Positions 3,065 to 24,166 are shown, counted from the stretch's first letter. The stretch: DNA of 64,000 nucleotides from an uncultured candidate division Zixibacteria bacterium (GCA_963735035.1 CAVTJJ010000003.1:864001-928000); one strand, 5' to 3'. The notes: a model not told the origin generated them from the sequence alone. Translations and numbers: made by a program.

Positions 3065-3076
3065 GTGTCCGTCTCC

Positions 3077-4645: not shown

Positions 4646-4657
4646 CGCGCCGCCTCC

Positions 4658-5578
4658 TCAGTTCACACCGTGACACCAGCAACTCTGACCGTAGGTCGTA
4701 GAGATGTCGCTGGACAGCAGTTTGCGGGTGGTCGACGAGCCATGGATGTCGCTATGGCACGCCAGGCAGTCGATTCCGGCGTAGACGCCGCCGTGCGCCG
4801 TGTTATGTGTCGGAACCATGTGACAGTAGTTACAGATCTGAGACTTGGGCTGTCTCAGGAGCTGATCGTTTTCACTGCCGTGAGGATAGTGGCATTCCAT
4901 GCACCAGCCGCTCTCCGAGCTAAACGTGCTCGAACTCTGATGGCCGTACAGGAACGGGCCACTCTGCTCCATATGGCAAGAGTAGCAGTTAGCCGACGCT
5001 CCAAGCCCTATTTCCGGCTCCGAAACGCCCAGGAAGCGATGGCAACTCGTGCAAGTAAAGGTGCCTTCGATCAAAGGGTGGTTGGAGCGCTTGTGGAACT
5101 GGAGAGCGACCGATTCGTGGCATTTTTTGCACGGTTGATCACCGGTCCAGGCCGCCGCCTGGTGAACCGAATGGCAACTCGTGCACGACATCCCCAGCCC
5201 GGCATGAGGATCATGCCCGGCCATCCCCAACCCCGGATGAGGCTGGTGGCAGGTGGTGCAGGTTGAGCCGGTCTTCGAGGGATCCTGAGTCGCCGGATTC
5301 GTGATATTATCCTTTGAAGGATTCTCGATGTGGACCGGACCACCCTCGTGGCAAGATACGCAGGCAACGGTGTGGTTGCCCTTCAAGCCCAGAGCGTGGG
5401 TGGTTTTGGCCAGTCCGGCGTCGTAGCCTTCGTGACACGACAGACAGGTCGCATTGTCGACCCCTGCCGGCGCGGCCGGTGTTTCGCCCGCTGAAAGAGC
5501 GGCCGAAGTTAGCAATCCCAGTCCCGCGATCAATAGACCAAGCAGGAACCGGTGTGAATTTGGGTTTTTCTCCGTCAT
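4658..5578 (-). CDS. MtrA/DmsE-family periplasmic decaheme cytochrome c
   Basis: Signal peptide and 10 CXXCH motifs in 306 aa. MtrA-like segments SGPFLYGH..CMECHYPHGSEND.LL and CLACHSDIHGS. Extra C-terminal CWCH. Confidence 0.85.
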   Translation of the reverse strand: MTEKNPNSHRFLLGLLIAGLGLLTSAALSAGETPAAPAGVDNATCLSCHEGYDAGLAKTTHALGLKGNHTVACVSCHEGGPVHIENPSKDNITNPATQDPSKTGSTCTTCHQPHPGLGMAGHDPHAGLGMSCTSCHSVHQAAAWTGDQPCKKCHESVALQFHKRSNHPLIEGTFTCTSCHRFLGVSEPEIGLGASANCYSCHMEQSGPFLYGHQSSSTFSSESGWCMECHYPHGSENDQLLRQPKSQICNYCHMVPTHNTAHGGVYAGIDCLACHSDIHGSSTTRKLLSSDISTTYGQSCWCHGVN

Positions 5579-5650: not shown

Positions 5651-5668
5651 TTGTGACATTTTTAACAA
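5651..5668. promoter_or_regulatory. Putative Rex (or CRP-family) operator upstream of the mtrA-like operon
   Basis: TTGTGACATTTTTAACAA matches TTGTGAA-N4-TTCACAA at 12 of 14 positions. Confidence 0.5.
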
Positions 5669-5933: not shown

Positions 5934-5967
5934 AAAAAAAGAGGAGGAGAGCTAAGCTCTCCTCCTC
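5934..5967 (-). terminator. Intrinsic terminator of the OmcS-like gene
   Basis: Perfect 12-bp stem GAGGAGGAGAGC-TAA-GCTCTCCTCCTC followed by T7 on the minus strand, about 20 nt after the stop codon. Confidence 0.85.
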
Positions 5968-5989: not shown

Positions 5990-7015
5990 TTACGGCAGGT
6001 TCAGAGCAACGGTACCCTGAGAATGGCACTGCTGACAGACAACTTTCGGAGCCGTTCCATCGCCTTCTTCGTCAATCGCGGCAGCGCCGGTAGCGAAGAT
6101 CAAGCCAAAGGCATTCTGGTTGCCGTGGCCCTTGTGGCAGCTAAAGCAGCTCGGCGTCAGATCGGCCGGAGCGGTCGCAAAGTTGGTACCCTGCGTACCC
6201 CAGTCACCGGTGGAGCTCATGACCTTGACGCGGTAGGGGCGGTTGCTGAAGCGACGAGTCGCACCAACGCTGATGTTGGCACCAGCGGTTGGGTGACGCA
6301 CCCAGGCGCTGTCGGTCATGTTGTACATGTTGGCGTTCGACGAGTTGCCGTGGAAATTCGTGTGGCAGTCGCGGCAGAAAGCAGCATAGGCCGACGAATC
6401 CTGGTACGGCTCGTTGAAATCGATATTGTCGACACTGTAATGGTCAGCAATCGCGGCACTGCGCTGGAAGACAGCCGTGGCCAGATTGTTGGTGCCGGTT
6501 GAATAGGTAATGTAATGACGGGCTGAGGATCCCACACCGCTAGAACGGGTATTGCGATAGTAAGCGTTGCCGTGCACGGTATGGCAGTTGGTGCAGCTCA
6601 AACCGTCGGCATTGCTCCAGGTACCGCCCGGGGCGACGTCAGTCGAGCCAATGGTATGGCCGGTAACGTCGAAGTACGGGGCGGTATTATCCATGTTCAA
6701 ACCACCACCCATACGACCGTTGGTGTACTGGGTCCCACCGTTGGCGCCCATGACATCAGGGGCAAACGTCTGGTTGTTGTGACAGCCGAGGCAGAGGTTC
6801 GTGACCTCATCGCGCAACAGAGCGTCATTCGGGCCGTTCGGGGTTACAAAGTATCCCGATCCGGCTGAGTCGGCATTGTAACCGTGCTGTTGGCTGGAGT
6901 GCATTACGTGGCACTCATTGCAATTCAGAGTCGCCTGGTAATGATAGTCTCCGGCCATGGCTCCCGCTGCAAACAACGCAACGAGTCCAGCCGCTACCAT
7001 GAAAGTGTTTCTCAT
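5990..7015 (-). CDS. OmcS-like hexaheme cytochrome c (candidate nanowire subunit)
   Basis: AAGGAG RBS, start MRNTF, signal peptide AMA. Six CXXCH motifs plus OmcS-like segments YH-x6-CNECHVMH, GH..APGGTW..LSCTNCHTVHG, RHP, CFSCHKGH and terminal CQQCH. Confidence 0.8.
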   Translation of the reverse strand: MRNTFMVAAGLVALFAAGAMAGDYHYQATLNCNECHVMHSSQQHGYNADSAGSGYFVTPNGPNDALLRDEVTNLCLGCHNNQTFAPDVMGANGGTQYTNGRMGGGLNMDNTAPYFDVTGHTIGSTDVAPGGTWSNADGLSCTNCHTVHGNAYYRNTRSSGVGSSARHYITYSTGTNNLATAVFQRSAAIADHYSVDNIDFNEPYQDSSAYAAFCRDCHTNFHGNSSNANMYNMTDSAWVRHPTAGANISVGATRRFSNRPYRVKVMSSTGDWGTQGTNFATAPADLTPSCFSCHKGHGNQNAFGLIFATGAAAIDEEGDGTAPKVVCQQCHSQGTVALNLP

Positions 7016-7184
7016 GAAGAACTCCTTAATAAACACACAGTACTGAGGTTGAAGTGTTATTGGACATCACTAAATTGGCTCTGCAAGCGGCCGGAATTGA
7101 AAAGTGCCGACCGAATCCAAACAGGAGAATCAGGTAGGAAATTTCTTCCTCAAAGAAGCGAGCGATGACACATCGGTGACAATA

Positions 7185-7202
7185 TTGTGAAACTTTTAGC
7201 AA
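7185..7202. promoter_or_regulatory. Putative Rex (or CRP-family) operator upstream of the omcS-like gene
   Basis: TTGTGAAACTTTTAGCAA matches TTGTGAA-N4-TTCACAA at 12 of 14 positions. Confidence 0.5.
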
Positions 7203-7403
7203 GCCGTCGTAAAGCTTAAGCATTGTGGTCGTTTGTTTCGTCACAAATGTTACTCAGTAATCACTAGGTAAGTACTAGTTCAATCTGGCGTAAAGATATC
7301 AATATTACCCGATAAGTCAATACCAAATTATTCGAGAACTTGAATCTTTTTTGTCGTAAATCTATACCAGCTAGTAAGTTAAACTACTACTGGGAAGGTG
7401 GGA

Positions 7404-8381
7404 TTACCTGATCTGGTACTTTTGGATTCGTCGACCTGACCGCTCGACGACGTAAAACGTTGAACTGCCGTCACTTGCAATTCCGATCGGATACTGGAAG
7501 AACCCCGGCTGTCGGCCGTATGCCCCGATCATCGTAAAGAAATCTCCGGTCCCTAAATAGACCTTTACAGTCTGCCGTAATTCGTCCAGAATCAAAATGA
7601 ACCGCCCCCCCTGACCATCGGACAAAAACCCGAATCCGGCAGGAAACGTCAAATCCTGTCTTTCGACATCGTGGCCGCCAAAACCGAACAGATATTGTCC
7701 GAGCGTATCGAAGACTTTTACGGCCGGAGTTCCGTAGATATCGCCAACATAGACTTTTCCGTCGTACATCCCCAGGCCAACCGGCGTATTGAGCTGATTG
7801 GCGGAATCTCCCTTCGATCCGATTGTACGAACCAAGAGAAGGTCCTGATCCAGAAGCAGCACGGTGGTGCGATCACCGTTGACGGCCAGACAGAACCGGT
7901 CGGTCGCGTCGACGGTCACGCACGAGACTTTCAAGTGAAGGGCAGTGTCGCCCAGCAATTGGCTGGGCCAAACGTTGTCAATAACGCGCCCCCGAAAGTC
8001 CAGGAGATCAAGTCGATCACTGATAGCATCAAGAAGCAGTATCTCCCCCCGACTATTAACTGCCATCGCCTTCGGCTGTCCGGCGAGAGTTCTTCCCGAG
8101 GCGTCTCTCACGAAATGCCGGAAAGAGAACTTACAGGTCAACTGGCGATCGTAGATCAGCACCCGGCTATTTCCAGCGTCGGCGACAAACACTTCTCCCG
8201 CCGTAGTGTCAAACCAGATGCCGGCCGGATCTTTGAGCATGGAGCCGAAACCGTCATCGTAGGCGACCGCCGTTACGGAAATGGCCGCCTGCAACGAATC
8301 CGCATCAAGAGCCGACGCAGTCGTGGCGCCCAGACCCGACAGAACGATAAGACCAAGAGCACAGACTCGAATCGGGCTCAT
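7404..8381 (-). CDS. NHL-repeat beta-propeller exported protein
   Basis: Signal peptide and repeated P.GI...G.VYVAD.GN.RV-type NHL blades. Confidence 0.85.
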   Translation of the reverse strand: MSPIRVCALGLIVLSGLGATTASALDADSLQAAISVTAVAYDDGFGSMLKDPAGIWFDTTAGEVFVADAGNSRVLIYDRQLTCKFSFRHFVRDASGRTLAGQPKAMAVNSRGEILLLDAISDRLDLLDFRGRVIDNVWPSQLLGDTALHLKVSCVTVDATDRFCLAVNGDRTTVLLLDQDLLLVRTIGSKGDSANQLNTPVGLGMYDGKVYVGDIYGTPAVKVFDTLGQYLFGFGGHDVERQDLTFPAGFGFLSDGQGGRFILILDELRQTVKVYLGTGDFFTMIGAYGRQPGFFQYPIGIASDGSSTFYVVERSGRRIQKYQIR

Positions 8382-8962
8382 TCACCGACCAGCTTAACAA
8401 GTTTCGCAACTGCTTTATCAACCACTTTGCGGGCCAGTTCTTCGCGCGATCTTACCGCCCGAATCCCGAACAATAATTCCGACTGATCACCTCGGGCGTT
8501 GGAAGCCCCGGTCCAGACGGTTTCGCGGGTTTTACAGCTAATTAGTCGAAGGTTCATCGAGACTTGCGGGATCTTCCCGAGGTAGGTGTTATCTGTCTCG
8601 GTGTATTCCAGAACCGTCCCGGTTATGATGTAATCAACCTTGAGACCGCCCGCGAGACTGTCGATCTGATCACCGGTCAGAAAGGTGCTCGACCGTACCC
8701 GATGTTTTCGCATTTGCTCGTAGGTTTGACCCAGTTCGGTCATTTCGAAAGCATTCGTGCTTCGCAGCGACAGAGCCAGCAGTTCGGTCATTTTCTCCGA
8801 GGCATTTTCCCGCGCACTCAGGTTTTCGAAGGGCATAATCGCGACTTTCGCACCCCGATGAATGGTTTCACCGCTGTATTTTCCGGCGGTAAAACTCGGC
8901 CCGCAGCCGGGTGCGACAAACAGGACAGCCATGATAGCCCACAACAGGCGTGGCATAAGCAT
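8378..8962 (-). CDS. CsgG/PelC/GNA1162-like (TolB_N-fold) lipoprotein
   Basis: Lipobox APG-C. Motifs VAIMPFENLS, LKVDYIITGTVLEY and VSMNLRLI..KTRETVWT. Confidence 0.75.
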   Translation of the reverse strand: MLMPRLLWAIMAVLFVAPGCGPSFTAGKYSGETIHRGAKVAIMPFENLSARENASEKMTELLALSLRSTNAFEMTELGQTYEQMRKHRVRSSTFLTGDQIDSLAGGLKVDYIITGTVLEYTETDNTYLGKIPQVSMNLRLISCKTRETVWTGASNARGDQSELLFGIRAVRSREELARKVVDKAVAKLVKLVGE

Positions 8963-8967
8963 ATCTC

Positions 8968-9561
8968 CTACTTCAGCACCAGCGCAAAGCGCGCCGCTAC
9001 TTCCCGGCAGACCTTGGTCGTGAGTTCGCCGAGCGTATGGGTTTCGCCGATCGATACAATCGGGAATTTCGGACCGCCACGACGGGTGGTTTCATAGCTC
9101 CACACCACCTTTCCCGAGTTACAGTCCAATAACCGGACTATCAGACCGACCGTCGGGAATTCGTCCGAACCGACCCGGACCATTCCGAAATCCCTGACCG
9201 CGCCCACGAAGACTCCCTGCACTCCGGTCGCCTTAGCGAGAGCGGTAAGCTCCTCCGCGGTGATTTCTTCAGGCAAATTGACCTTGTCGCCCTTGAGCGA
9301 CTCGCGTACCGCCTTGTAGAAATCGCCGGCCGGAGCTATTTCCACCGCATTCTTCATCAGAAGCTCGGTAATGAAACTCGAGGTGACTTTGTCCGACGCG
9401 GCACGGTCGCCGGTCAGACTGGCGAACGGGATAACTCCCACACGCTGGTAAAATCCAAAGTCGGCCTCGTTGTTCACATATTCCGGCGGTGGTGCACACG
9501 ACACAATTGCGAGCGCCGCCAGGGTAACAGCGATCAACCTGTAAACATGTTCTTTAAGCAT
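8968..9561 (-). CDS. CsgG/PelC/GNA1162-like lipoprotein (paralogue)
   Basis: Lipobox IVS-C. Motifs RVGVIPFASL, GVQGVFVGAV and VRLLDCNSGKVVWS. Confidence 0.75.
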   Translation of the reverse strand: MLKEHVYRLIAVTLAALAIVSCAPPPEYVNNEADFGFYQRVGVIPFASLTGDRAASDKVTSSFITELLMKNAVEIAPAGDFYKAVRESLKGDKVNLPEEITAEELTALAKATGVQGVFVGAVRDFGMVRVGSDEFPTVGLIVRLLDCNSGKVVWSYETTRRGGPKFPIVSIGETHTLGELTTKVCREVAARFALVLK

Positions 9562-9573
9562 ACTTTCTTGCCG

Positions 9574-11364
9574 CTATATCTGAAAGTTGAAGGTTCCATT
9601 CCAGGTTTTTGAAATGATTTCCGTTTTGTCGAGTTTTGAGCCGCTCCGCCCCTGAAGATAGCCGAGGGTAAGCGTCGAACGACGACTGGTGTATATCATT
9701 AACTGAACGTTGGCGGTCCGAGGGCGCGTAATCTTGACCGATCCCTTGTCGTATATCGACTCGGCCTGCACCCGCTCCTGGTTCTGTCCGTTGAGCGATA
9801 AGTAGAAAGTGAAGGCTCGACGAAACGAGTAGTTGACGTACAGCCCGATATTCTCGTTGCGATTGAACGCACTCGATGCCCCCACGCGACTGAAGATATA
9901 AGACGCCGACAGGTTGAGATTCTGTCGAGGCAACCAGGCCAGCCCGGTGTTGACTGATTCCATAAAGACACGGCCGGGCCGCAGCTTCCGTCCCAGCGAC
10001 GTGCTCGAATAGCCTACCCGGCCTTCCAGGTTGGAAGCCATGTAGAACCGGCCTTCCGCCGAATTGCTCATCTGGTAGCGGCGCTCCGCCTGCGGCGATT
10101 TGATATCTCTAATGAGCGATGAATTCATTCTCAGGTCGAAATAGGGAAACGGCGAAAAGTCGACCGAGCCGTAGTACGTGTCCACCGCATAGTGATCGAG
10201 ACGCTGAGTGGAAACTAAGTTGCCCAGCGAATCGGTCTGCTCGATCACCCGGTTCGACCGCTGGTAGATTGTGCGGGACGCGCTGAGCCTCGTGTCCACA
10301 CCCTGCCTCAAGTACCGGGAAAGAGAGCCCGTCATCGACACAAACTCCAGAATGCCGTCGCTGCCCCAGCCTTCAACCTGATATGATTTCACTACGCTGG
10401 CGTCAAAATACGGCGCCGGGGAAAAGTCCAGCCCGGCGGACATCGACTCGGAGCGTGTGCGGGAAGTCGCAACGCCCTGGGTTGCCGATGTAGCCCTGCC
10501 GGAGTAGCTCGCCGATAATCCCAGCGGCCGCCAAGGTGAAGCGGAAACCATCGCCGAGAGAGTGTGTGTCCGGCTGCGCGAGTCAATCGTAACCAGGGCA
10601 TCGTCCTTCGTGTCGTAGATATTATAAGACGCGCCGGCGTTGCCGAACCGCCACGACGGCGTGGTCGTGGATAGAGTCCCGCTCATGGCCCGGATAACAT
10701 CACTCGCCAGTGGATTGAGCCGATCATCTCGTCTGATGCGTGTATAATTGCCCCTCAGAGCAAATCGTTCGCGAGCGTAACCGGTCTCGCCCACAAAGTT
10801 GTGCTGAATGACATCGTCATGGCGCACAGGCGCGCGATCAAAGAAACGAAGGCGGTTGTAGGCCAGATTCAGAGTCGGATATCGAGGCACATTCACGGCC
10901 AGCGCGCCGCGCCAATCCCTATAGAAAACGTCGACAAGTGAAGTACCCGCCGTGTCCGAAATCGTCCTGTCCCTGCGACTATAAGGTGAGTAGCTCGTGT
11001 TGATGCTGTAGCCGTAGCTGCTCAGATCAAAGTAATAAGTGGGGCGGTAGCTCCGATAATCGGTGTGAAGATCGTCACGCCAATCAAACCTCCCGGCCAG
11101 GCGCATCCGGTTCTTGTAGAAGAGAACGTCCTCTACATTGATAAACGTATTGGCCATCATCTGACCACTTCGCGATGTGGTCGCACCCGTAGTCCGAACA
11201 TCAGACATCGACAACTGCCCGTTACCGTACCAGCGCTGTCCGCATGCCGAACCGGGCACGAAGACAACAGTCATCATTATCAGCGCAGCCGCACCCCATA
11301 AGGCGTTACTGAGTGTCAATTGAGTATGGCCGCAAGAGCCTCGTCTCCAGAGAGAACCGTCCAC
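9574..11364 (-). CDS. Large outer-membrane beta-barrel protein (candidate nanowire export or anchoring channel)
   Basis: Hydrophobic N-terminus, S/Y/R/N-rich alternating beta-strand pattern throughout, C-terminal GTFNFQI. Start codon uncertain. Confidence 0.65.
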   Translation of the reverse strand: MDGSLWRRGSCGHTQLTLSNALWGAAALIMMTVVFVPGSACGQRWYGNGQLSMSDVRTTGATTSRSGQMMANTFINVEDVLFYKNRMRLAGRFDWRDDLHTDYRSYRPTYYFDLSSYGYSINTSYSPYSRRDRTISDTAGTSLVDVFYRDWRGALAVNVPRYPTLNLAYNRLRFFDRAPVRHDDVIQHNFVGETGYARERFALRGNYTRIRRDDRLNPLASDVIRAMSGTLSTTTPSWRFGNAGASYNIYDTKDDALVTIDSRSRTHTLSAMVSASPWRPLGLSASYSGRATSATQGVATSRTRSESMSAGLDFSPAPYFDASVVKSYQVEGWGSDGILEFVSMTGSLSRYLRQGVDTRLSASRTIYQRSNRVIEQTDSLGNLVSTQRLDHYAVDTYYGSVDFSPFPYFDLRMNSSLIRDIKSPQAERRYQMSNSAEGRFYMASNLEGRVGYSSTSLGRKLRPGRVFMESVNTGLAWLPRQNLNLSASYIFSRVGASSAFNRNENIGLYVNYSFRRAFTFYLSLNGQNQERVQAESIYDKGSVKITRPRTANVQLMIYTSRRSTLTLGYLQGRSGSKLDKTEIISKTWNGTFNFQI

Positions 11365-12453
11365 CTAGTCTCCTGGATCCGGATTGTGAACGTTGTGCCC
11401 GGTCGGCGAGCTATAATTGCTACCGTGTTTATCATAACAGTGCTTATCAGACGAGAACAGATGTGCCTCTTCGTTCGGAATCGGCGGCAGCGTCCTGCCT
11501 TCAACCGTACCACCGCCAACACCATCCGACGATTGGTGACAGCCAAAGCAGAACCGACGCACTTGAGCGGCATCATTCTTGATGTCAGTCAGACCGTACC
11601 ATCCCGGCCGTTGATCACTCAGCAGATAGGCGTTTCCACCGGCTCCGTTGTTGCCGACCGAACCGTGAGGATTATGGCACTCGTAACATGGGAGACGTGA
11701 CATCGACGGAACATACCCCACGCCGTTGCTGGAGCCGTGTCCGGCGTTCGAAGCGGGATTGATGGAGCGGTCATAGTAGTAGGCTATAGTCTTCGATGTA
11801 TCATCCATCGCCGCAGGGCCAAACTGGCTATGACAATTCAAACAGAGCATGTAATTGGTCGGCTGCGATCCGGTCTGAGAACCCACGATGCCGCGATAGG
11901 TCGTATCGAGCAAATCGTGCTCACCCGACCCGCCGTGAACATTGTGACAATTGTTGCAGGAACCGTTCCCGTCCGCGTCTTTCAAAGGCATGTACTGGCT
12001 GGTGTAGTGCGGCGAAAATTGCGGATCTTCCCACACGAGTTGCCCCGGCCACCGAACACGGTGCTGCACTCCCGCCACCCGGGTACCGCCGGAATTGTAT
12101 TCGAAGTAACCCGGATCGGACGATCCCGTGGGTAACCGATCCGATTCCTGGGCCGGATAACCCGACGTACCCCCGGAGGGGCGATCGGCGTGACAACCAC
12201 CCAGAGATGCCGCGAAGCAGAGTCGATCCGAATTGGCCTGGAATAATCCATAGGGAGAAGACGACGCCGGGTCGTGGCTGACGTGACACTGAGCGCAGCT
12301 CCCGCGCGGGCATTCCTGAACTCGCAGAACACCGGTCGTCGTTGAACCGTGAGGTGACGCCTGATACCGGCCGTTGTCGGCGTTGGATACACTGATCAAC
12401 AACATCGTCAGGCCGGTCATTACGAAAACAAAGATACGTTTACGAGTTATCAT
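11365..12453 (-). CDS. Exported multiheme cytochrome c (5 CXXCH + CX7CH + CXXKH)
   Basis: Start MITRK with GAGG RBS and a signal peptide. CAQCH, CNNCH, CLNCH, CYECH and CFGCH, plus atypical CFAASLGGCH and CYDKH. Confidence 0.85.
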   Translation of the reverse strand: MITRKRIFVFVMTGLTMLLISVSNADNGRYQASPHGSTTTGVLRVQECPRGSCAQCHVSHDPASSSPYGLFQANSDRLCFAASLGGCHADRPSGGTSGYPAQESDRLPTGSSDPGYFEYNSGGTRVAGVQHRVRWPGQLVWEDPQFSPHYTSQYMPLKDADGNGSCNNCHNVHGGSGEHDLLDTTYRGIVGSQTGSQPTNYMLCLNCHSQFGPAAMDDTSKTIAYYYDRSINPASNAGHGSSNGVGYVPSMSRLPCYECHNPHGSVGNNGAGGNAYLLSDQRPGWYGLTDIKNDAAQVRRFCFGCHQSSDGVGGGTVEGRTLPPIPNEEAHLFSSDKHCYDKHGSNYSSPTGHNVHNPDPGD

Positions 12454-12460
12454 CGTGGCC

Positions 12461-13429
12461 TCACTTGTAATGGCATTGCTGACAACCGGAAAGATAGTTG
12501 ATGCCGCCATCGACATACGGCCAGCGTAGATTCTTGGTATTGGCCGTACCATGAGAAGCATGACAACTGCCGCAGAATACCATATTGCTGCTCTGGGCTA
12601 TTTGCGACGAGGCGAAATCGGTTGCTTGCGGCTGAAGGAAAGGAAGTCGCGGGACACCTTCGCCGGTGATCGGGCTTGACCCAACGAACCCCTCGCCGCC
12701 GCCCGACACCCAATGATTCACGTTGGTATGTCCGGAGCTTCCGACGGAAACATCCGACGGGTGGGCGTTGAAATGAGCCGGCAACACTGCGGCGGAATTT
12801 ACCGCTACCTGATCATGGCAGGAACCGCACCAGCGCGACCAACCAGTCTTATACCCAATGTTACCCCGGTTGTAAGCGATAGCGGAACCGCTGGCGTTGG
12901 GTGGATTGGCCGGAGCGACATTCCAGAACAGATCACGACCGGCCTCGATAGTGATCGAATCTCCTACCCCGGCCGGATCAAAACGGAGATTGCGATAATT
13001 CGTATTTCCGTGATAATCATGGCAACTGGCGCAGGTCAGGGTCATCGATTTTCCAAAACCGTTGAGCGGAATCGGGGACGCGATACCGAGATCATGACCC
13101 GAAACCTGGCCGACGCCAACAACCGTAAAATGCCCGGCGGCGCTTTCGGCAATGGTCCCCTGAGAATACATCGATATCGGCGCCAGAACGTCCGGTGCGC
13201 TCGGGTCGGAGCCGTCGTGACATGACAGGCACAACTCGTTGACTGAACTCTTTATCAGGAGCACCGAATACGGTCCGCCCGGAATCGGCTGGCCGTCGGC
13301 GCTGCTGTGCTGGATGTGACACTGCCCGCAGGCGAGTGATTCGCCCAGGTGCCAGTCGCCGGCCGACACGCCCGGTGCCGCCAGAAGCGAAGCTGTCGTC
13401 AGAGCTGTAAGTATCTGCCCGAGTTTCAT
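12461..13429 (-). CDS. Second OmcS-like hexaheme cytochrome c
   Basis: Signal peptide VSA. WH-x6-CGQCHIQH, CLSCH, GHDLG, LTCASCHDYHG, WCGSCH, HPS, CGSCHASH and terminal CQQCH; collinear with 5990-7015. Confidence 0.8.
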   Translation of the reverse strand: MKLGQILTALTTASLLAAPGVSAGDWHLGESLACGQCHIQHSSADGQPIPGGPYSVLLIKSSVNELCLSCHDGSDPSAPDVLAPISMYSQGTIAESAAGHFTVVGVGQVSGHDLGIASPIPLNGFGKSMTLTCASCHDYHGNTNYRNLRFDPAGVGDSITIEAGRDLFWNVAPANPPNASGSAIAYNRGNIGYKTGWSRWCGSCHDQVAVNSAAVLPAHFNAHPSDVSVGSSGHTNVNHWVSGGGEGFVGSSPITGEGVPRLPFLQPQATDFASSQIAQSSNMVFCGSCHASHGTANTKNLRWPYVDGGINYLSGCQQCHYK

Positions 13430-13430
13430 A

Positions 13431-14339
13431 TTACTGCTCCTGACTTAGATCGTAAATGTCAAGGCGGCCGGTATCGTTGACAACGATCAATTTGTAGTCG
13501 GAAGTCGTTGTCATGTCGACCGGCCTTACGCCCGGTGTTCCGAAAAGCCGCGTGTCCAAAAGCGTGCCTGTCTGATCGTAGCGCCGAAACTGCGAATTGG
13601 TGGCGTCGGCCACCCAGATCATCTCGCGCGCATCCACAGTCGCCGCCGTAGCATCCCAGACGCTTTGCGGCGACGGTCGGTTCCAGTCCCCGGCCAACAA
13701 CGGTTTACCGTCGACGTCGAAAATCTGCACCGGGAAAGATCGATCACCAACTATCACCAGACGCCCCGAGGCCAGTTGGGCGCAGACCGTCGCCCGTCCG
13801 AGCTTGCCCCGTCCGGATCCGCCCGGTATTAACACGCCGACTTGTTTCCACTCGATATCAAAGTGTCTCAAGCCATCCGGGTTTTCCGTGATCGCAAGAA
13901 AAGTACGATCGCGACGTTGATATAAACGCAGGATTCGTCCCTTGCCGCCAAGAGTCGATGACAGATCGGCCACGGTATCGATCTTTCGGGGTTCTTCTTC
14001 GGAGACCCGAAACAGAAGTCGGCTATCCCACTGAGAGAATATCAATTCCCGATCGCTCGTCCAGACGAGGGCGGTCGGTTGAGCGAGCATGACCCCGTCA
14101 CCGACCGACCAGAGCACTTCGCCTCTGGAATCGAATACGTAAATGCGATTGTTGAATCGATCGGCGACCGCCACCCGCTCGCCACTGGGCGCTGTCGCCA
14201 GTTGCCCGGGTTTGGACACCGAAAAAGAAACCAGCCTGGAAATAAGCGGAGGCAACTCAGTGGCCGACTCGGCAATAACGGCGCATGTCGACAGCAACAA
14301 TGCGCTTACGAAAACTATTCTTGCCGATGCAGCCGACAT
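13431..14339 (-). CDS. NHL/beta-propeller exported protein
   Basis: Signal peptide and blades VAVADRFNNRIYVFD and IWVADATNSQFRRYD. Confidence 0.8.
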   Translation of the reverse strand: MSAASARIVFVSALLLSTCAVIAESATELPPLISRLVSFSVSKPGQLATAPSGERVAVADRFNNRIYVFDSRGEVLWSVGDGVMLAQPTALVWTSDRELIFSQWDSRLLFRVSEEEPRKIDTVADLSSTLGGKGRILRLYQRRDRTFLAITENPDGLRHFDIEWKQVGVLIPGGSGRGKLGRATVCAQLASGRLVIVGDRSFPVQIFDVDGKPLLAGDWNRPSPQSVWDATAATVDAREMIWVADATNSQFRRYDQTGTLLDTRLFGTPGVRPVDMTTTSDYKLIVVNDTGRLDIYDLSQEQ

Positions 14340-14356
14340 AAGCGATGCTCATTGCC

Positions 14357-17300
14357 TCATTCGTGCTCTGTGCCGTGGCACAGATTGCAGAGTTTGCGGG
14401 TCTTGTCTGCTATCAGCAGATTCTTTTCCGTCGTAGAGTGCGGCGAATGACACCCGGTACATATTAATTCGGTACGAGTTCGTGGATCCAACACTCCCGC
14501 TCCCATCGGATGGAAATGCGTCTTCTGGGCGTCCTCATGACAGCCCGTGCACAATTTCATGATATCCGGTGAAGCGAGCAGGTTCTTGTAATCGCTCGAA
14601 TGCGGGTCGTGACAGGTGCCGCAATCCTCAAAGGCGGGCGGATGCTTCACCGGCCCGGTGAATTCTCTGGTATTGTGGCAGCTCAGGCACTGCTGGACGC
14701 CGTCCTTCTTCTGCAATCCGGCGCCGAATCCGACGTGCGGCGAGTGACAGGCAGTGCAGGAACCCGGGGTTTCGAGCGCCGGGTGCACGACCGCCTTCGA
14801 AGTCAGTTTGGTAGCATCGGCATGGCACTTGGCGCAGAGTTGAACGCCGGTGGCAACGAACTGCGTGGGCGATGAACCCTGATGGCAGTCGGGGCACCGG
14901 CCCTGAGTAAACGGCTTGTGGCTCTTCGGCAACAGCAGGCCGGTGGCGCCTTTCGCTCCCACGTGCGACGCATGGCAGCTCTGGCAATCGGTTCCGGAAA
15001 TGTCGAAGCCCTTGTGAGCGACACCCATCGCCGGTGACGTCAAATTATGACACTTGCCACAGAGCGCTTTCTTGTCGGTCACGAGCAGGGCTTTGTGGGT
15101 CCCGGCGTGGACTTCGTGACAGGCAACACACTTGCCGTTCTTCGCCGGCGGATGCACCTGGCCTTTATCAAATGATTCCTTGAGCGCCGAATGGCAATCA
15201 AGGCAGATTACTTCGGAAGGTTCCTTCAATAGCCCGGCATTGGCCGAGGCGTGCGGCTTGTGACATTCGGTGCATTTCTTCTCGGCGAACGGTCGATGTA
15301 CCGATGGCAGCGTGTCCAGCTTGCGCAGGTCGTCGTGACACTGGAAACACAACAGACTCGCTTCAGCTTTCAAGAGCTTGGGCTCGTCGGCGGCGTGCAC
15401 CCGGTGACAGCCGACACATTCGCCGCCCGCGAACGGCGGATGTTGCGTCGATAGTTTCATTTCGGCGGCCAGGCCGTCGTGACAGGTGGTACAGACCTCA
15501 GTGAGATTGGTCGCCAAAACAACCGAGCCGTCCGGGCCTTTGGTATGGCAGTCTTCGCAAGCCCCTTCGGCGAACGGCGGGTGCTCGATCGAGCGCACCA
15601 GCTTGGCAGCGGTCGATATATGCGGATTGTGACAATCCAGACAGTCGGCCTTGGCGACGTTGAATCCCTTGTGAGCGGCATCAAGAGTGGAGTCGACCGT
15701 ATGACACTGCACACACAATTCCGGCGCGGGAGCTTTGACAAATCCGGGCTGGTCGGATCCATGCGAGACGTGACAGGCGTCGCAATTGCCGTCCTTTACC
15801 GGCTTGTGCGCGATATTCTTCTGAATCCTGTCGCCCATCTCCTGATGGCAGACATAGCAGAGGGAGGCCCGCTGATCGGTGAGCGACGGCTGAACCATCA
15901 CCATCTGCCCGCTCACCAGCATGTTCGTAGACCGCCCGGCAATTAACCCGGCCCGTTCGGCGCCATGCGGATTATGACAGCCGGTGCAGTCGCCGTCTTT
16001 AGCCGCCGTATGCACATGGGCTTTCTGCAATCCCAGTTCACTGCTGTCGTGACAACCCACGCACAGCTTGGCGGGCGCCTCGGTCAGAAGATTCTGCTCG
16101 TTGCCGTAATGGGGCACGTGACAGGTCAGACAGTCTTCGCCGGCCGGGGCATGCTTGTGCTGCAAATTGAGCATGCTGCCGATCTGCTCGTGGCAACCTA
16201 GACAAAGAACGGGGCCCTCCGCCCGAAGCAACGCCTTCTTCGTACTGAAGTGCGGCTGATGACAGCCGGCACAATTGCCGGTCATGTAAGGCGAATGTGC
16301 CGAGGCCGCCGTCTGAGCTTTCGCATCCGGTTCGTGACAATCGGCACAGAGCTGCTCCACCGGTTTGCGCAACATTGCCTTGCCGATACCCTCGTGCGGC
16401 GAATGACACGACAGACAATCTTCTAGCGCGGCGTGGACCGACATCGATGAATCCCGTGTCGCCGCCATCGCGGTATGACACTGCAAGCAGAGCTCAGCTC
16501 CGTTCTTGCGCAACAGATGCGTCCGCTCGGAACCGTGCGGTTCGTGACAGGAACTGCACTGGCCCAACAAAGCCGGCTGATGCTTTACTAGATCCGATTG
16601 AGTAGTAATTTCGGAGTGGCAATCCCGGCACAGCTCTCCCTCACCCTTGACTAATAGTTTATCCTGGCGGGAACTATGCGGCTTGTGACAGTCGGAACAA
16701 TTGTCCGCACTTACTGCCGGGTGAGGCACCGGCTTCGAGGCGCCTGCCGCCTGTTGGTCGTGACAGGTCGCACAGACCGAATTCGCAGTAGTGCCGGCTG
16801 CGAAAGTAACCTTGCCGCTAGCATCGGGCAACGAATGGCAGGTCTCGCATTCACCGTCCGCAAACGGAGCATGCGCCCGGCGTGACAATAGACCCGGCTT
16901 GGCGGTCGCATGACCCGAGTGGCAATCAGTACAGCCCAGAGCCTCGGTGTTCTTGCCGGCATGAGCCTTGGCCATCGCCGCCGCATCATCTTTGTGACAG
17001 CTCATGCACAGAGCGCTTCCCTCCTGCTTCAACAGGGAGGGATGGGCGGAGTTATGAGCTTCGTGGCAAACCAGACAGTTCAGTTCGTTGAACGGCTTGT
17101 GCGGATGAGCCGCTTTCAGCGACTCAGACACTTCGGCATCATGACACAACAGACACGACGCCGGGTCATCGGTCCCCTCCACCACCGGATACAGCATCGC
17201 CTTCTTGTCCGAAGCGTGAGGACTGTGGCAATCCCAGCAGACCCCCTGTCCGACCGGCGTGTGAACTGTACCCGCGGCAAATTTTTCCTGCAGGTCTTTG

Positions 17301-17557
17301 TGGCAAGAGAAGCAAAGCTGATTGTCGTAGAATTTTAGAACCAGATTCTGAGCAAATCCGTGCCGCCCATGACAGGACTCGCACTGTTCCTTCTTGACCG
17401 GATCATGAACGAATTTTCGGGAACTGAATTCCGACTTCTGCTTCTTGTGGCAATCTAAGCAGGTCTTGGCGGCAAACAGGTCGGCGGCCGAGAACAGCAG
17501 CGTTATGGCGAAGAGAATACTAGAAAGACGAAAGAACCTCGATGAAGCGCGAGACAT
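14357..17557 (-). CDS. Giant multiheme cytochrome c, 42 CXXCH (paired CXXCH repeat units)
   Basis: Signal peptide. Manual count gives 42 CXXCH motifs in 1066 aa, in the repeat H.P...CxxCH.PH.S...LL....LCxxCH. Confidence 0.92.
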   Translation of the reverse strand: MSRASSRFFRLSSILFAITLLFSAADLFAAKTCLDCHKKQKSEFSSRKFVHDPVKKEQCESCHGRHGFAQNLVLKFYDNQLCFSCHKDLQEKFAAGTVHTPVGQGVCWDCHSPHASDKKAMLYPVVEGTDDPASCLLCHDAEVSESLKAAHPHKPFNELNCLVCHEAHNSAHPSLLKQEGSALCMSCHKDDAAAMAKAHAGKNTEALGCTDCHSGHATAKPGLLSRRAHAPFADGECETCHSLPDASGKVTFAAGTTANSVCATCHDQQAAGASKPVPHPAVSADNCSDCHKPHSSRQDKLLVKGEGELCRDCHSEITTQSDLVKHQPALLGQCSSCHEPHGSERTHLLRKNGAELCLQCHTAMAATRDSSMSVHAALEDCLSCHSPHEGIGKAMLRKPVEQLCADCHEPDAKAQTAASAHSPYMTGNCAGCHQPHFSTKKALLRAEGPVLCLGCHEQIGSMLNLQHKHAPAGEDCLTCHVPHYGNEQNLLTEAPAKLCVGCHDSSELGLQKAHVHTAAKDGDCTGCHNPHGAERAGLIAGRSTNMLVSGQMVMVQPSLTDQRASLCYVCHQEMGDRIQKNIAHKPVKDGNCDACHVSHGSDQPGFVKAPAPELCVQCHTVDSTLDAAHKGFNVAKADCLDCHNPHISTAAKLVRSIEHPPFAEGACEDCHTKGPDGSVVLATNLTEVCTTCHDGLAAEMKLSTQHPPFAGGECVGCHRVHAADEPKLLKAEASLLCFQCHDDLRKLDTLPSVHRPFAEKKCTECHKPHASANAGLLKEPSEVICLDCHSALKESFDKGQVHPPAKNGKCVACHEVHAGTHKALLVTDKKALCGKCHNLTSPAMGVAHKGFDISGTDCQSCHASHVGAKGATGLLLPKSHKPFTQGRCPDCHQGSSPTQFVATGVQLCAKCHADATKLTSKAVVHPALETPGSCTACHSPHVGFGAGLQKKDGVQQCLSCHNTREFTGPVKHPPAFEDCGTCHDPHSSDYKNLLASPDIMKLCTGCHEDAQKTHFHPMGAGVLDPRTRTELICTGCHSPHSTTEKNLLIADKTRKLCNLCHGTEHE

Positions 17558-17567
17558 AAAACCCCCG

Positions 17568-18143
17568 CTAGTGCGGCTTGGCCGTGGAGTCGGCCGGTAA
17601 CGGCTTCGATACCGGTTTTGGTCTCTCGACCTTCACGAACCGGTCACTTACTTTGAAGTCAACTAAACGGAAGCCGAACATGTCGTTCCGGCGAAAGTGC
17701 GGAGCATCGGTGAAAAAGAAACCCCAGCTCTCCTGTACCAACGAATCCCCGACCATCACGCGTACGCGCACCGCGGGGTTGTACAGAGTGTCCGACAACT
17801 GCATGACCTTACCGCTGTCAGTGATCGTGAAATGAGGATTGAACAGGATCACCTCACCCACATCGTCACCTTCACCAAGCGGGAACTTCTGGTTCATCTT
17901 GACCGTGTCAATTTGTGAAAAACCGGTGAAAACCCGGTGCTTGGTCTCAATGACGTAATAGTCATCAGGCGAAGCGACCGCCGCCGCCGGGGCAGCGTCA
18001 TGACTGGGCAACAAAACCGGCGTCTGACCGGCAGGAACTTTGACTGAATCAGTCTCGGCCAACGCGACCGCTACCGCTGCAACTGCAAATGTCACAACAA
18101 GTAGGGGTCGAACGGACCATTTCTCAAACCACATCTTTCGCAT
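17568..18143 (-). CDS. Exported DUF2155/ResB-like beta-rich protein
   Basis: Signal peptide, P/A linker, and motif FNPHF..SDTLYNPAVRVRV..ESWGF resembling ResB/DUF2155 periplasmic domains. Start uncertain (18179, 18143 or 18134). Confidence 0.5.
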   Translation of the reverse strand: MRKMWFEKWSVRPLLVVTFAVAAVAVALAETDSVKVPAGQTPVLLPSHDAAPAAAVASPDDYYVIETKHRVFTGFSQIDTVKMNQKFPLGEGDDVGEVILFNPHFTITDSGKVMQLSDTLYNPAVRVRVMVGDSLVQESWGFFFTDAPHFRRNDMFGFRLVDFKVSDRFVKVERPKPVSKPLPADSTAKPH

Positions 18144-18275
18144 CAAAATAAGAGTAACAGGATCGGACCGGTATGTCAATACGTATTTGGGAATAGGATA
18201 CCAGGTAGTAATGATTGATAACCGCTCTTGATAAGCATTGAGCGTGGCCTACCGAAGCGATTCTTGTAAAATTCG

Positions 18276-19082
18276 CTATTCGAATTCGTGGCAGGCCAGA
18301 CAAAGCGCCCGGGGTGAACCAAGATCGATCAGCCGATTCTTCGTCACGCTGGTCAACTGGTGACAGGTCTGACACTCCATCCGACCACCGTACAACTGCA
18401 GGCGCGGATCCAAATCGCGACGTACCCGAACACCGCTCCGGAAATCGGCGTGACGCTCGATCTGTCCGACCGGGTGCATCCGGTGACTGCTGAACCGTGG
18501 GACGTTGGCCTGATCGATTCCCTCAACCGACAGGTTTTGTTCTTCGCCATGACAGAGGAGGCAGCTTTCCGACGAAGTCAGACCGGCCATGGCGGGATAA
18601 TTCGTATGGTACAACCCGGCCGCCTGTCGATGACCCTCGGAGAGCATGTCCATCCGGACAGTGCCGTCGTGGCAGGCCGAGCATACATCGGGTCCGGCCG
18701 AAAGACTCGGAGCAAATACATTCCCGCTCGCGCTGATCATACCCGGCTCGTGATACACATGACAATCGCCGCAGGGGCGGTTTGGATTTTGGTGGAAGGC
18801 GGCCGCAAGACCGTTCTGAGGGCCATCGGATTTGCCGTGGCACGACCGGCATCGTTGTGTCGGTGACGGCGCTACAGACGTTTCGTCCAACGAAGCCACC
18901 AGGCTATGGCAGACGGAGCAATCGATTTTCGCATGGCTGTTACTTGCAGTGGCGGGGGCTCCGATATTGTCGGTCCGGCCGAATACGCCCACTCCACAGA
19001 CGAAAACGATGACAATGCCATGACTCCAGAAGCGTGATCTTCTCATACGCCCCATATCGGCTCGGAAAGGGGCCGATGACAT
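18276..19082 (-). CDS. Heptaheme cytochrome c
   Basis: N-terminal hydrophobic segment. CSVCH, CRSCH, CGDCH, CSACH, CLLCH, CQTCH and CLACH. Confidence 0.85.
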   Translation of the reverse strand: MSSAPFRADMGRMRRSRFWSHGIVIVFVCGVGVFGRTDNIGAPATASNSHAKIDCSVCHSLVASLDETSVAPSPTQRCRSCHGKSDGPQNGLAAAFHQNPNRPCGDCHVYHEPGMISASGNVFAPSLSAGPDVCSACHDGTVRMDMLSEGHRQAAGLYHTNYPAMAGLTSSESCLLCHGEEQNLSVEGIDQANVPRFSSHRMHPVGQIERHADFRSGVRVRRDLDPRLQLYGGRMECQTCHQLTSVTKNRLIDLGSPRALCLACHEFE

Positions 19083-19335: not shown

Positions 19336-19890
19336 TTGACCGCAGCCAAACCCCTTTTCACACCCGTTCGAACCGCTTCGCAGAAACACTTGTTCGAACG
19401 ACTACTGGTAGGCGTCATTATCATGCTTATCGTGATGGCGTTCACCCCATCGAACGTCCACGCCGAGGACCCGTCGGCAACAGTCGCGACTATCGACTCC
19501 GTTCTCGCGCATTCTCTCGTCCTGAAAGATAAAGTTGTGTACGTCGACTTCTGGGCGTCCTGGTGTACGCCGTGCCGCCACTCCTTTCCCAAGATGAAAG
19601 AACTCGCTGAGAAATATGCCGGCAAGGGCTTTCAGATAGTCACGGTCAATCTTGATAAGAAGCACGCCGATGCCGAGAAGTTTCTCCGTGAGACACAGAC
19701 TGCTTTTCAGGTGGTATATGACTCCACCGGCTCCGTCGCCAAACTGTTCAAAGTCGACGCCATGCCGACCTCGTTCTTATACGGTCGTGATGGCCGTCTG
19801 CAAACGCGCTTTCGGGGATTCAAGGACGACGAGTCCGAGACTCTCACTACAACAATTAGTAATCTTCTCATTAGGGAGAATTCTAAATGA
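19336..19890 (+). CDS. TlpA/ResA-family thiol-disulfide oxidoreductase
   Basis: VVYVDFWASWCTPC and AMPTSFLYGRDG motifs with an N-terminal signal or anchor. Start uncertain. Confidence 0.9.
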   Translation: MTAAKPLFTPVRTASQKHLFERLLVGVIIMLIVMAFTPSNVHAEDPSATVATIDSVLAHSLVLKDKVVYVDFWASWCTPCRHSFPKMKELAEKYAGKGFQIVTVNLDKKHADAEKFLRETQTAFQVVYDSTGSVAKLFKVDAMPTSFLYGRDGRLQTRFRGFKDDESETLTTTISNLLIRENSK

Positions 19891-20120
19891 ACCGCAAGTC
19901 TCTGGCTGGAATGTTACTGATAGCCATCCTGGCCGCCGGCGCTTTCTCGGGTTGTGCCGGAGTGGGTGTGCAGGTATGGGAGCGCGACGTTCTCGCCAAG
20001 CGTGAGATGCAGCTCGACAACGGCGCTCTGGATAAAGCCCTGGATGATCATATCTACTTCAGCAAGGAAGCATCATCCGGTGGCAGCGGCTTTGGCGGTG
20101 GAGGCTGTGGGTGCAACTGA
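19887..20120 (+). CDS. DUF4266 small lipoprotein
   Basis: Lipobox FSG-C, VWER..LA, and C-terminal SKEASSGGSGFGGGGCGCN. Confidence 0.85.
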   Translation: MNRKSLAGMLLIAILAAGAFSGCAGVGVQVWERDVLAKREMQLDNGALDKALDDHIYFSKEASSGGSGFGGGGCGCN

Positions 20121-21409: not shown

Positions 21410-22301
21410 AACGGCGACAGAATTCGCGTTGACGCGCACGGACGACGGCTGGCTCGTGAGCTACTCCGCCATGGCCAGTCCCTGTGAGATACATTTGAAT
21501 TCAATATCAAAGAGCGAGGCCGAGGAATCGGCCTCGCTTGCCTTTTCCGAGACCCGGCGAATCGAACAGAAATACAGCCGGTATCGCACCGACAACATCA
21601 TCCACGCCATAAATCATTCGAATGGAAGTCCGGTTGAGGTCGACAATGAAACCGCACGTATATTCAACTACTCCGATCAGTGCTACCAGCTCAGCGAGCA
21701 TATGTTCGATATTACATCGGGCGTGCTTCGCAAAGCGTGGAAATTCGACGGGCGAGAGGTCAACGTCGACGAGACGCTGATTTCGTCGCTGCTCGATCTG
21801 GTCGGTTGGGACAAAGTAGTCTGGAGCGATGACAAGATTACGCTTCGGCCGGGGATGGAACTCGATCTGGGAGGCGTGGGCAAAGAGTACGCGGTCGATC
21901 GGGTAGCTGAGATGCTTTTCAGGGCCTGCAACTCACCTGTCATGGTGAATTTCGGCGGCGATATTAGAACCGTCTGCCCGACTGATCGGCCACATATCTG
22001 GACGATTGGAATAGAGAAGCCGGAGACTGAGAGCACGGCGGTTGGACAGATCGAACTAACCAGTGGTGGGGTCGCCACCAGTGGCGACGCACGTCGTTTC
22101 TGCCTCCATAGGGGCAAGAGACTTGGACATATACTTAACCCGCTCACCGGCTGGCCCGTGATAGGCGCGCCACGAAGTGTCACGGTCATATCGGATCTCT
22201 GCACCGAAGCCGGATTGTTTTCGACCCTGGCCATGCTTCAAGGCGAATCCGCCGAAGAATTCCTCGACGCTCAGCAGGTGAAATTTCACTGCATACGCTG
22301 A
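21399..22301 (+). CDS. apbE: FAD:protein FMN transferase ApbE
   Basis: FDITSG, DLGGVGKEYAVD, VNFGGD, ATSGD and HILNPLTGWP motifs. Confidence 0.92.
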   Translation: MISKTATEFALTRTDDGWLVSYSAMASPCEIHLNSISKSEAEESASLAFSETRRIEQKYSRYRTDNIIHAINHSNGSPVEVDNETARIFNYSDQCYQLSEHMFDITSGVLRKAWKFDGREVNVDETLISSLLDLVGWDKVVWSDDKITLRPGMELDLGGVGKEYAVDRVAEMLFRACNSPVMVNFGGDIRTVCPTDRPHIWTIGIEKPETESTAVGQIELTSGGVATSGDARRFCLHRGKRLGHILNPLTGWPVIGAPRSVTVISDLCTEAGLFSTLAMLQGESAEEFLDAQQVKFHCIR

Positions 22302-23433: not shown

Positions 23434-23500
23434 AATGCTTGGGCGTGTATATAATCGTATAATAACATGTGATTCTACTGTAAATGCAAAGGAGTATATT

Positions 23501-24097: not shown

Positions 24098-24166
24098 GGA
24101 AGGACCAGACTCCATGAACGTTGACCGGTGCAAGTACGATTGAGTTAGATAGGAGGACGTAGGGAT

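Follow-up and report, generated by a model that had tools for sequence, protein, structure and literature searches.

A putative divergent variant of the osc/oet cytochrome cluster in an uncultured Zixibacteria bacterium

We analysed a 64,000-nucleotide (nt) stretch of DNA, referred to below as the window, from an uncultured candidate division Zixibacteria bacterium (GCA_963735035.1, CAVTJJ010000003.1:864001-928000). Between positions 5990 and 19082 it carries eleven open reading frames (ORFs), all on the minus strand and named g1 to g11 in order of transcription. Judged by sequence comparison, they are a divergent, rearranged variant, which we call type A, of the osc/oet cluster, whose genes accompany the cytochrome OmcS.

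The eleven ORFs encode 7, 0, 42, 0, 6, 5, 0, 0, 0, 0 and 6 CxxCH heme motifs, respectively, and three further minus-strand genes (4658-5578, 3077-4645 and 1964-3064) encode 10, 0 and 5. Together the 14 genes hold 81 motifs within 17,119 bp. Residue shuffles of the same 14 proteins gave a mean of 0.83 and a maximum of 4 (500 shuffles), and the three plus-strand frames contain none. A preliminary description of the window had counted eleven co-oriented, often abutting genes and 81 canonical heme motifs in 17 kb, and both counts agree with ours. Genes g3 to g10 abut, with gaps of −4 to 17 nt (g6 start taken as ATG 12453), and g11 is isolated by 388 nt upstream and 411 nt downstream.

18276-19082, minus strand: g1, 7-heme cytochrome c, start uncertain (7 CxxCH, gene maps)
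17568-18143, minus strand: g2, small exported protein (type-A-only matches, position in locus L169)
14357-17557, minus strand: g3, 1066-aa 42-heme cytochrome (BLAST segments, profile-profile comparison, motif counts)
13431-14339, minus strand: g4, NHL-type beta-propeller (hhalign, position)
12461-13429, minus strand: g5, OmcS-family hexaheme (hhalign, ligand-His columns, codon bias)
11365-12453, minus strand: g6, type-A-specific cytochrome (5 CxxCH, CX7CH and CxxKH; oscD slot)
9574-11364, minus strand: g7, ~590-aa outer-membrane beta-barrel, distant OscE/OetI type (hhalign, profile search)
8968-9561, minus strand: g8, PelC/CsgG/LpoB-fold lipoprotein, OscF type (hhalign, PDB profile, lipobox)
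8378-8962, minus strand: g9, second lipoprotein of the same fold (hhalign 99.8%, lipobox-like in 37/41)
7404-8381, minus strand: g10, NHL beta-propeller (Pfam NHL; hhalign 99.6-99.95%)
5990-7015, minus strand: g11, OmcS-fold hexaheme (PDB profile match, AlphaFold/Foldseek/VIA, His columns, codon bias)

Genes of the cluster and their osc counterparts

The osc cluster is known to us through PMC13194489, PMC12977616 and PMC3495685. Roles in folding (OscH), in secretion (OscE, OscF and OscG) and in morphology (OscD) have been proposed for the operon, in which OscI is GSU2495 and OscJ is GSU2494 (PMC13194489). An eight-gene block, GSU2500-2493, comes after the OmcS-like gene (PMC12977616), and a YVTN propeller and a lipoprotein lie within the G. 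sulfurreducens block (PMC3495685). Our canonical set consisted of nine Desulfuromonadia regions and of 20 loci from Geobacteraceae, Nitrospira, Myxococcota and other groups that carry an OmcS motif; loci from Geobacteraceae metagenome-assembled genomes and the Desulfuromonadia genomes stand in for G. sulfurreducens PCA, and Osc letters were assigned by order and family. The usual canonical order is NHL propeller, OmcS, YVTN propeller, barrel, lipoprotein, lipoprotein, SurA/PPIase, 26-heme cytochrome, 16-heme cytochrome, propeller, and some loci end with an extra OmcS-like gene. Three of the nine Desulfuromonadia regions (L122, L123, L128) have an NHL gene, one or two 12-heme cytochromes, a barrel, three lipoproteins, a PPIase and the 26-/16-heme genes, with neither OmcS nor a YVTN propeller upstream. 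A second cluster type of the phylum, type B, is described in the next section.

Two OmcS-family hexaheme genes, a feature of osc clusters, are present as g11 and g5. Single-sequence PDB searches with either protein did not match OmcS. A g11 profile of 116 sequences had OmcS (6ef8) as its sole PDB match (E = 3.6e-10). The AlphaFold model of g11 (pLDDT 83) matched 6ef8 in Foldseek (E = 2.3e-4, prob 1.0, TMq 0.42), and VIA-align superposed it on OmcS with Z = 12.1 (rmsd 4.0 over 247 residues; next-best Z 4.9). OmcS was the only significant structural or profile match for g11. Against canonical OmcS, g5 and g11 each scored 99.7% in hhalign.

OmcS has 12 His ligands, one of which is donated by the neighbouring molecule (PMC6584659). 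In a joint alignment, the 12 His-ligand columns were 100% filled in g11 (39 rows), in g5 (31 rows) and in a 7-heme paralogue (13 rows); they were 89-100% filled in canonical OmcS (27 rows) and conserved in type B too. Thus, the prerequisite for head-to-tail stacking is retained in g11. The two hexahemes differ in codon use: when about 2,500 mechanically called ORFs are ranked by how closely they resemble ribosomal genes, g11 lies at the 99.3rd percentile and g5 at the 61st. We take g11 as the probable major subunit of a putative filament and g5 as a probable minor (base or adaptor) subunit.

The 7-heme paralogue is a third OmcS-family member with 7 CxxCH, found downstream of g11 in 13 of 47 type-A loci (L050, L059, L061, L065, L068-L071, L077-L087); its extra heme could sit on the filament scaffold as a solvent-exposed tip or branch. 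A membrane protein of ~750-770 aa, CcmF-like by eye, is encoded 3' of g11 or of the paralogue in families f7 and f20 (L074:14627-16942, L077:1589-3847). One relative (G016; L017-L018) carries two frameshifted g11 copies in tandem.

The large cytochromes OscI and OscJ, with 26 and 16 hemes in canonical loci, are present as the single ORF g3. The best BLAST segment of the 26-heme proteins fell on the N-terminal part of g3 in 28/28 cases, and that of the 16-heme proteins on its C-terminal part in 24/31; of the other seven, six favour another register of the repetitive g3 and one ends just short. In profile-profile comparison, the best matches covered 81-731 (26-heme) and 740-1120 (16-heme). This collinear mapping, together with 42 = 26 + 16, indicates that g3 corresponds to OscI plus OscJ in one chain; whether as a fusion or a fission is left without direction or root, both trees warning of long branches that meet. 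All 34 full-length orthologues have exactly 42 motifs. None of the 34 has a lipobox, which suggests a periplasmic protein.

The barrel and the two lipoproteins of the OscE/F/G type keep their order as g7-g8-g9 (hhalign 97.6-100%). For g7, hhalign gave 97.6-97.9% over 519-531 columns against canonical and type-B barrels, at 13-14% identity. The g7 profile recovered canonical barrels in 20 of 251 Desulfuromonadia genomes (E = 1e-10 to 1e-5); all that it found in the 251 were canonical-length barrels or one shorter three-lipoprotein variant. A genome scan with the g7 sequence alone found no relative, and a search from a divergent barrel gave 9 matches, all close relatives. Acidobacteriota and Eisenbacteria predominate among the Atlas neighbours of g7 and g2, which we treat as a lead.

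Gene g8 scored 99.9% against its canonical counterparts and is lipobox-like in 40/46, and g9, with a single domain, corresponds to the OscG-type protein of 330-460 aa. PelC forms a ring under a barrel. The g8 profile matches PelC (PDB 9h80) as well as PDB 5t11 and 5t0z. One genome (G097) has two type-A g8 copies.

The propeller g10 lies directly upstream of an OmcS-like gene, as in canonical clusters (the OscA position), and scored 99.6% against them; g4, at 98.3% against canonical clusters, stands where Desulfuromonadia clusters have a propeller gene after the 16-heme gene. Against this distal propeller family g4 scored 99.2%, and 98.2% against the OscA type. Both g4 and g10 score higher with the distal family than with the Desulfuromonadia OscA type, and the best score of g10 is with type-B NHL proteins, so that sequence leaves propeller orthology ambiguous.

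We found no OscH-type SurA/PPIase in 50 type-A locus files, against 25 matches in type B; generic PPIases are encoded elsewhere in the host genome. The OscD-type YVTN/YNCE propeller had no match in type-A loci or in the host genome, and it is also absent from about half of the type-B loci. The two slots are taken by g2 and g6. This can be read from the metagenome loci L169 and L171, found by a scan with the g6 alignment, which have type-A genes in canonical block order, with g6 at the oscD and g2 at the oscH position; in the unpermuted L169 the order barrel-lipoprotein-lipoprotein-g2-42-heme places g2 in the SurA/PPIase slot.

The g2 profile has 27 matches in type-A loci and 0 in type-B or canonical loci, and profile-profile comparison with canonical clusters gave no match. 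The preliminary label "DUF2155/ResB-like" is at most a lead: none of 15 homologues has a Pfam match at E <= 0.1, DUF2155 appears in 13-32% of the members of Atlas neighbours (0.79-0.81), and ResB is unsupported.

The g6 profile likewise matches type-A loci only, among the type-A, type-B and canonical loci compared, with partial heme-motif matches to canonical clusters. The earlier reading of 5 to 7 hemes is borne out, since besides five canonical motifs g6 has a CX7CH that is conserved and, in last place, a CxxKH (window 11428-11430), which is CxxCH in 33/37 relatives and CxxGH in 2. The CxxKH and CxxGH forms suggest a heme held by one thioether, with two independent losses. The invariant CX7-8CH motif is a canonical CxxCH in one lineage. 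A 12-heme extended form of g6 occurs in 11/47 relatives. In 6 of 150 representatives, the g6 domain is fused directly behind a g5/g11-type domain, and because of these six natural proteins we propose that g5 and g6 form a base or adaptor. The AlphaFold model of g6 (pLDDT 42) was unusable, and the g7+g6 complex prediction (score 0.23, mark 0.32) counts neither way. As a module, the g6 domain is found again in giant multiheme proteins (P0123, P0124, P0131, P0159 and others), which are 1,000-4,600 aa long and hold as many as 76 CxxCH.

A g1-type gene accompanies the Zixibacteria clusters of either type, though its position and orientation vary, and in profile-profile comparison g1 has only partial heme-motif matches to canonical clusters; it is an accessory gene.

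Two cluster types in the phylum

We searched 285 genomes of the phylum with g8 and found matches in 94, of which 51 scored at least 141 bits (type A) and 43 at most 87 bits. No genome holds both kinds (0/94), and this mutual exclusion fits alternatives for one job. We examined the loci of 47 of the 50 other high-scoring genomes and of 24 of the 43 low-scoring ones. All 24 low-scoring loci follow the canonical order as far as their contigs reach, and these define type B. The 47 high-scoring loci are window-like, with the exact g2-g11 order in 19 and a single 42-heme ORF in 34; the others show contig ends, frameshifts or variants. Family f20 lacks recognisable g4 and g5, f14 has g11 moved upstream, and f17/f18 have an extra 5-heme gene.

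In our trees, type A, type B and canonical proteins form three separate groups. Both trees are unrooted and carry a long-branch warning, and the lipoprotein tree is a quick tree. Within type A, families f7, f14, f17/18 and f20 each cluster and one f5 genome nests in f1, which, within those limits, suggests that descent was mostly vertical with some transfer.

The host genome (3.6 Mb, 97% complete) has 19 ORFs with at least 3 CxxCH motifs and only one cluster of this kind. A non-Geobacter, Zixibacteria-like host, as had been proposed, is supported by taxon-named homologues of g11 (8/9 Zixibacteria) and of the unlinked Rex protein (4/5 Zixibacteria, 81-89% identity); the remaining entry in each set reads "bacterium". 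In composition the cluster is not an island, contrary to the earlier wording: its GC and GC3 are like those of the genome (GC3 0.60-0.69, median 0.66). Recent horizontal gain was considered, and composition gives it no support.

Promoters, a predicted Rex operator and the neighbouring operon

The following elements flank the genes.

18151-18179, minus strand: sigma-70-like promoter of the g2-g10 operon (Rex-like site degenerate here)
7293-7320, minus strand: sigma-70-like promoter of g11 (same arrangement in 24/25 intergenic regions)
7185-7202: Rex operator-like palindrome, 2 mismatches, between g11 promoter and start (24/25 type-A loci)
5941-5967, minus strand: intrinsic terminator after g11 (12-bp stem and T run)
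5651-5668: Rex operator-like palindrome, 2 mismatches, upstream of the MtrA-like gene (motif search)
1964-5578, minus strand: separate operon with MtrA/DmsE-like decaheme (4658-5578), MtrB-like barrel (3077-4645) and 5-heme lipoprotein (1964-3064)

Since window-wide counts of promoters and terminators were at chance level, only conserved sites were used. The g10-g11 gap is AT-rich and 327-693 nt long in 24 of 31 loci; these 24 and the window (n = 25) were counted, and seven f20 loci with gaps below 60 nt were left out. A sigma-70 promoter pattern was found in 24/25 regions, and 24/25 also have a palindrome that departs from the Rex consensus (as in PMC2883068) by no more than two mismatches; the genomes are kin and these counts are not independent. 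In 100 dinucleotide shuffles of the regions, a mean of 0.19 and a maximum of 2 had the motif. A sigma-54 pattern was absent from the 25 g11 upstream regions, and Rfam gave nothing in window 1-30000, hence no known riboswitch before g11. Hairpins similar to the terminator are visible 3' of most g11 orthologues. Before g2, a Rex-like site overlaps the -10 box in 15 of 23 type-A relatives.

The host encodes Rex above NCBIfam cut-offs, and rex is present in 29/31 relatives. The predicted operator was defined by the autoregulatory sites before rex, where the motif occurs in 29/29 genomes (shuffle mean 0.08). It also precedes the first gene of type B in 18/21 cases, canonical OmcS in 0/29 and canonical NHL in 0/11. 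A CRP/FNR protein was considered as the regulator to which the palindrome belongs; the autoregulatory sites, and flanks of the form T...A in 35 and 34 of 36 sites, would favour Rex. The host genome has 21 Rex-like sites, two of them in the window (before g11 and before the MtrA-like gene). Others lie before rex, before the gene of a Tat-exported iron-sulfur subunit near a 13-heme cytochrome (C3:484863) and before several central-metabolism genes (judged from N-termini), so that a small Zixibacteria Rex regulon could be reconstructed. With its own promoter, its terminator and its codon bias, g11 is singled out within the cluster. A look-up of sequencing runs for 5990-12500 came back empty, which bears in neither direction on expression. 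The operator-like palindrome and the ribosome-like codon bias mark it as the predicted main, redox-induced product.

In the neighbouring operon, the decaheme matches MtrA of PDB 6r2q_A (E = 7e-22); it scored 134 bits with TIGR03508, below the cut-off of 192, and the barrel 18.8 bits with PF11854 (MtrB_PioB), below 23 (E = 7e-4). An MtrB-like gene occurs in 169 of the 285 genomes, many of them without any osc-type gene. It adjoins g11 in 0 of 38 type-A relatives (at least 2.5 kb downstream visible in 35) and is missing from all 77 locus files of the two types. Because of the terminator and this lack of adjacency in relatives, the neighbourhood appears particular to this genome. The Mtr-type conduit had been described as joined to the cluster, and the terminator between them (5967-5941) reduces this to physical adjacency. 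Before MtrA-like genes, the Rex motif was found within two mismatches in 2 of 4 testable loci of relatives.

Just beyond this operon lies an IS200-like transposase (window 1248-1772), a possible agent of local juxtaposition. On the other side, divergent from g1, genes for a thioredoxin-like protein (ResA/TlpA), a DUF3570 barrel and an ApbE flavin transferase (19336-22301) possibly form a flavinylation-linked envelope redox module. They are followed at 23014-26437 by a Rrf2 regulator, a hemerythrin-domain protein and a nitric oxide reductase gene, qNor-like by eye, which spans three overlapping ORFs and is probably frameshifted. At 60164-63580, a secreted 1138-aa protein with HAF repeats and a FlgD-Ig/Por-secretion-tail C-terminus fits a host of the FCB group.

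Proposed function and comparison with known systems

The interpretation that we favour, with reasonable though limited confidence, is a divergent, rearranged machine of the osc/oet type, by which an OmcS-family cytochrome is exported and connected to the periplasm in order to shed respiratory electrons outside the cell. When the NADH/NAD+ ratio rises, Rex would leave its operator, as NADH lowers Rex binding elsewhere (PMC2883068), and the separately promoted g11 would be made in bulk. Holo-g11 would mature in the periplasm and exit through the g7 barrel, braced by PelC-like rings of g8 and g9. The propellers g4 and g10 and the g2 protein may act as assembly factors. All these roles are taken over from the published osc model. 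Outside, g11 would stack head to tail into an OmcS-like filament in which each subunit lends one His to its neighbour's heme, and g5 and g6 would form a minor base or adaptor, with single-chain g3 carrying electrons across the periplasm. The Mtr-like operon would be an independent conduit that may share the Rex signal.

Several points weigh against this interpretation. The identity between g11 and OmcS is just 17-22% and the TMq of the model is low (0.42, as given above), type-A proteins form long-branched clades of their own, and the types proposed for folding (OscH) and morphology (OscD) are absent from all type-A loci. Two congeners, 77% and 100% complete, have no g8 gene. The Rex sites of the window carry two mismatches each, and the site before g2 is degenerate. 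In the literature, OmcS alone is known as a wire, no function is known for its paralogues, and sequence models cannot tell which proteins beyond the genus are authentic nanowires (PMC12977616); physiological current through cytochrome filaments is itself disputed (PMC12580347).

The same genes may instead encode a porin-cytochrome conduit without a filament, in which g3, g6 and g5 would thread electrons through the barrel made by g7, and g11 would be a cytochrome of the cell surface, as a monomer or short oligomer. We regard this as rather unlikely. It agrees with the reading of the same block in syntrophic sulfate reducers (PMC10553843), with the cytochrome gene g6 abutting the barrel gene in type-A loci, and with the fact that OmcS paralogues are not known to form wires (PMC12977616), polymerisation of g11 being proposed by analogy with OmcS. 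However, none of the 12 OmcS ligand positions is lost in g11, the lipoproteins are similar to the export rings of PelC, and a strong promoter, a terminator and high-expression codon bias are found together in g11 alone, which suits a many-copy polymer over a 1:1 part.

We give little credence to the view that the same hardware runs inward, for uptake from partners or minerals, or is mainly structural, for biofilm adhesion or electron storage. Related clusters have been proposed to serve electron uptake in syntrophic sulfate reducers (PMC10553843), and filament function is disputed in Geobacter (PMC12580347), but a Rex operator implies induction at NADH excess (PMC2883068), which suits an electron sink. 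Finally, that all 14 genes form one integrated locus, a filament machine plus an Mtr conduit as the preliminary description had it, is hardly credible: the two units share a strand, lie 411 nt apart and each have a Rex-like site in this genome, but the terminator between them, the lack of such adjacency in all 38 relatives and the many genomes with an MtrB-like gene and no osc-type genes speak against it.

Returning to the filament machine, a more specific and more tentative proposal is that type A is a second, anciently diverged design without a SurA chaperone and with the filament hard-wired to the cell. A 42-heme chain spanning the periplasm would pass electrons to a g5-g6 adaptor at the barrel and from there to a new filament of the OmcS fold, turned on through Rex by the NADH/NAD+ ratio. 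If true, roughly one in three Zixibacteria would be exoelectrogens that make filaments by either of two interchangeable designs. The cluster brings OmcS-type machinery to an uncultured phylum (94/285 genomes) and supplies natural experiments for debated parts of the osc model: the one-chain g3 implies that OscI and OscJ act as one continuous heme chain, and the loss of OscH and OscD shows what the machinery can spare or replace. From promoter and codon signals the main subunit can be told from its paralogues, where sequence models cannot do so, and the putative Rex operator predicts both the conditions under which the system is on and an outward flow of electrons.

Published work already covers homologues of OmcS from beyond Geobacter (PMC10954620), clusters of the omcE type from five phyla (PMC13712944) and genes for iron cycling in Zixibacteria (PMC8478452). 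The available text of PMC12307469, PMC12954529, PMC12133095 and a peat preprint does not describe the present arrangement. Among the matches listed in our literature search, none concerned a 42-heme OmcS-linked cytochrome, Zixibacteria together with OmcS or osc, or Rex together with OmcS; the supplements of the defining osc study may bear on novelty.

The neighbouring operon resembles MtrAB(C) of Shewanella (6R2Q) in its sequence of decaheme, barrel and outer lipoprotein cytochrome. It differs in a 522-aa barrel, in a 5-heme partner instead of the decaheme MtrC and in scores below the DmsE and MtrB_PioB cut-offs. The omcE cluster (PMC13712944) also encodes, besides a nanowire subunit, a large barrel and two each of multiheme cytochromes and beta-propellers, but its subunit is a tetraheme of another fold, to which g11 aligns with a VIA Z of 3.6 against 12.1 for OmcS. 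The OetABI cluster with omcX/omcS-like/apc2a genes of syntrophic sulfate reducers, a type of cassette first identified in G. sulfurreducens, likewise has a barrel, large multiheme cytochromes and OmcS-like genes; it has been read as a porin-cytochrome conduit for electron uptake, and its description, which is our basis for the likeness, mentions neither a 42-heme fusion nor Zixibacteria in the text available (PMC10553843). With the OmcS filament (PDB 6EF8/6NEF), g11 shares the fold, the order of the six CxxCH and the twelve His ligand positions, whereas it is shorter, 17-22% identical, and has two extra invariant His.

The closest comparison is with the osc cluster (GSU2505-GSU2493). Shared are OmcS-family hexahemes, NHL propellers, a large barrel, two PelC/CsgG-fold lipoproteins, 26+16 periplasmic hemes and the order within each block. 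Canonical gene order as a whole is not kept in the window or its relatives: the window reads (g2, IJ, propeller, OmcS-like)(g6, E, F, G)(NHL, OmcS-like), with the canonical blocks permuted. The window further differs in joining the 26- and 16-heme genes into one ORF, in having g2 and g6 where OscH and OscD would stand, in a barrel of ~590 aa against 700-770 aa, in a single-domain OscG type, in a subunit of 340 aa against ~430 aa and in Rex sites that canonical OmcS and NHL upstream regions lack. Because three osc features are missing (OscD, OscH and the canonical gene order), we regard the cluster, which would work like the osc machine, as a variant.

The preliminary description had named it a complete assembly island and a candidate for an undescribed system. 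An OmcS-fold subunit, a barrel, lipoproteins, propellers and a large cytochrome are indeed in place, but with the OscD and OscH types missing the set is complete in a relative sense. The barrel, lipoproteins, propellers and large cytochrome are homologous to the omcS-companion genes with conserved synteny, and these same homologies make the cluster a variant of the published osc/oet cluster rather than an undescribed system. What the present analysis adds is the phylum-wide either/or split between two types, the replacement of two slots by g2 and g6, and the predicted control by Rex.

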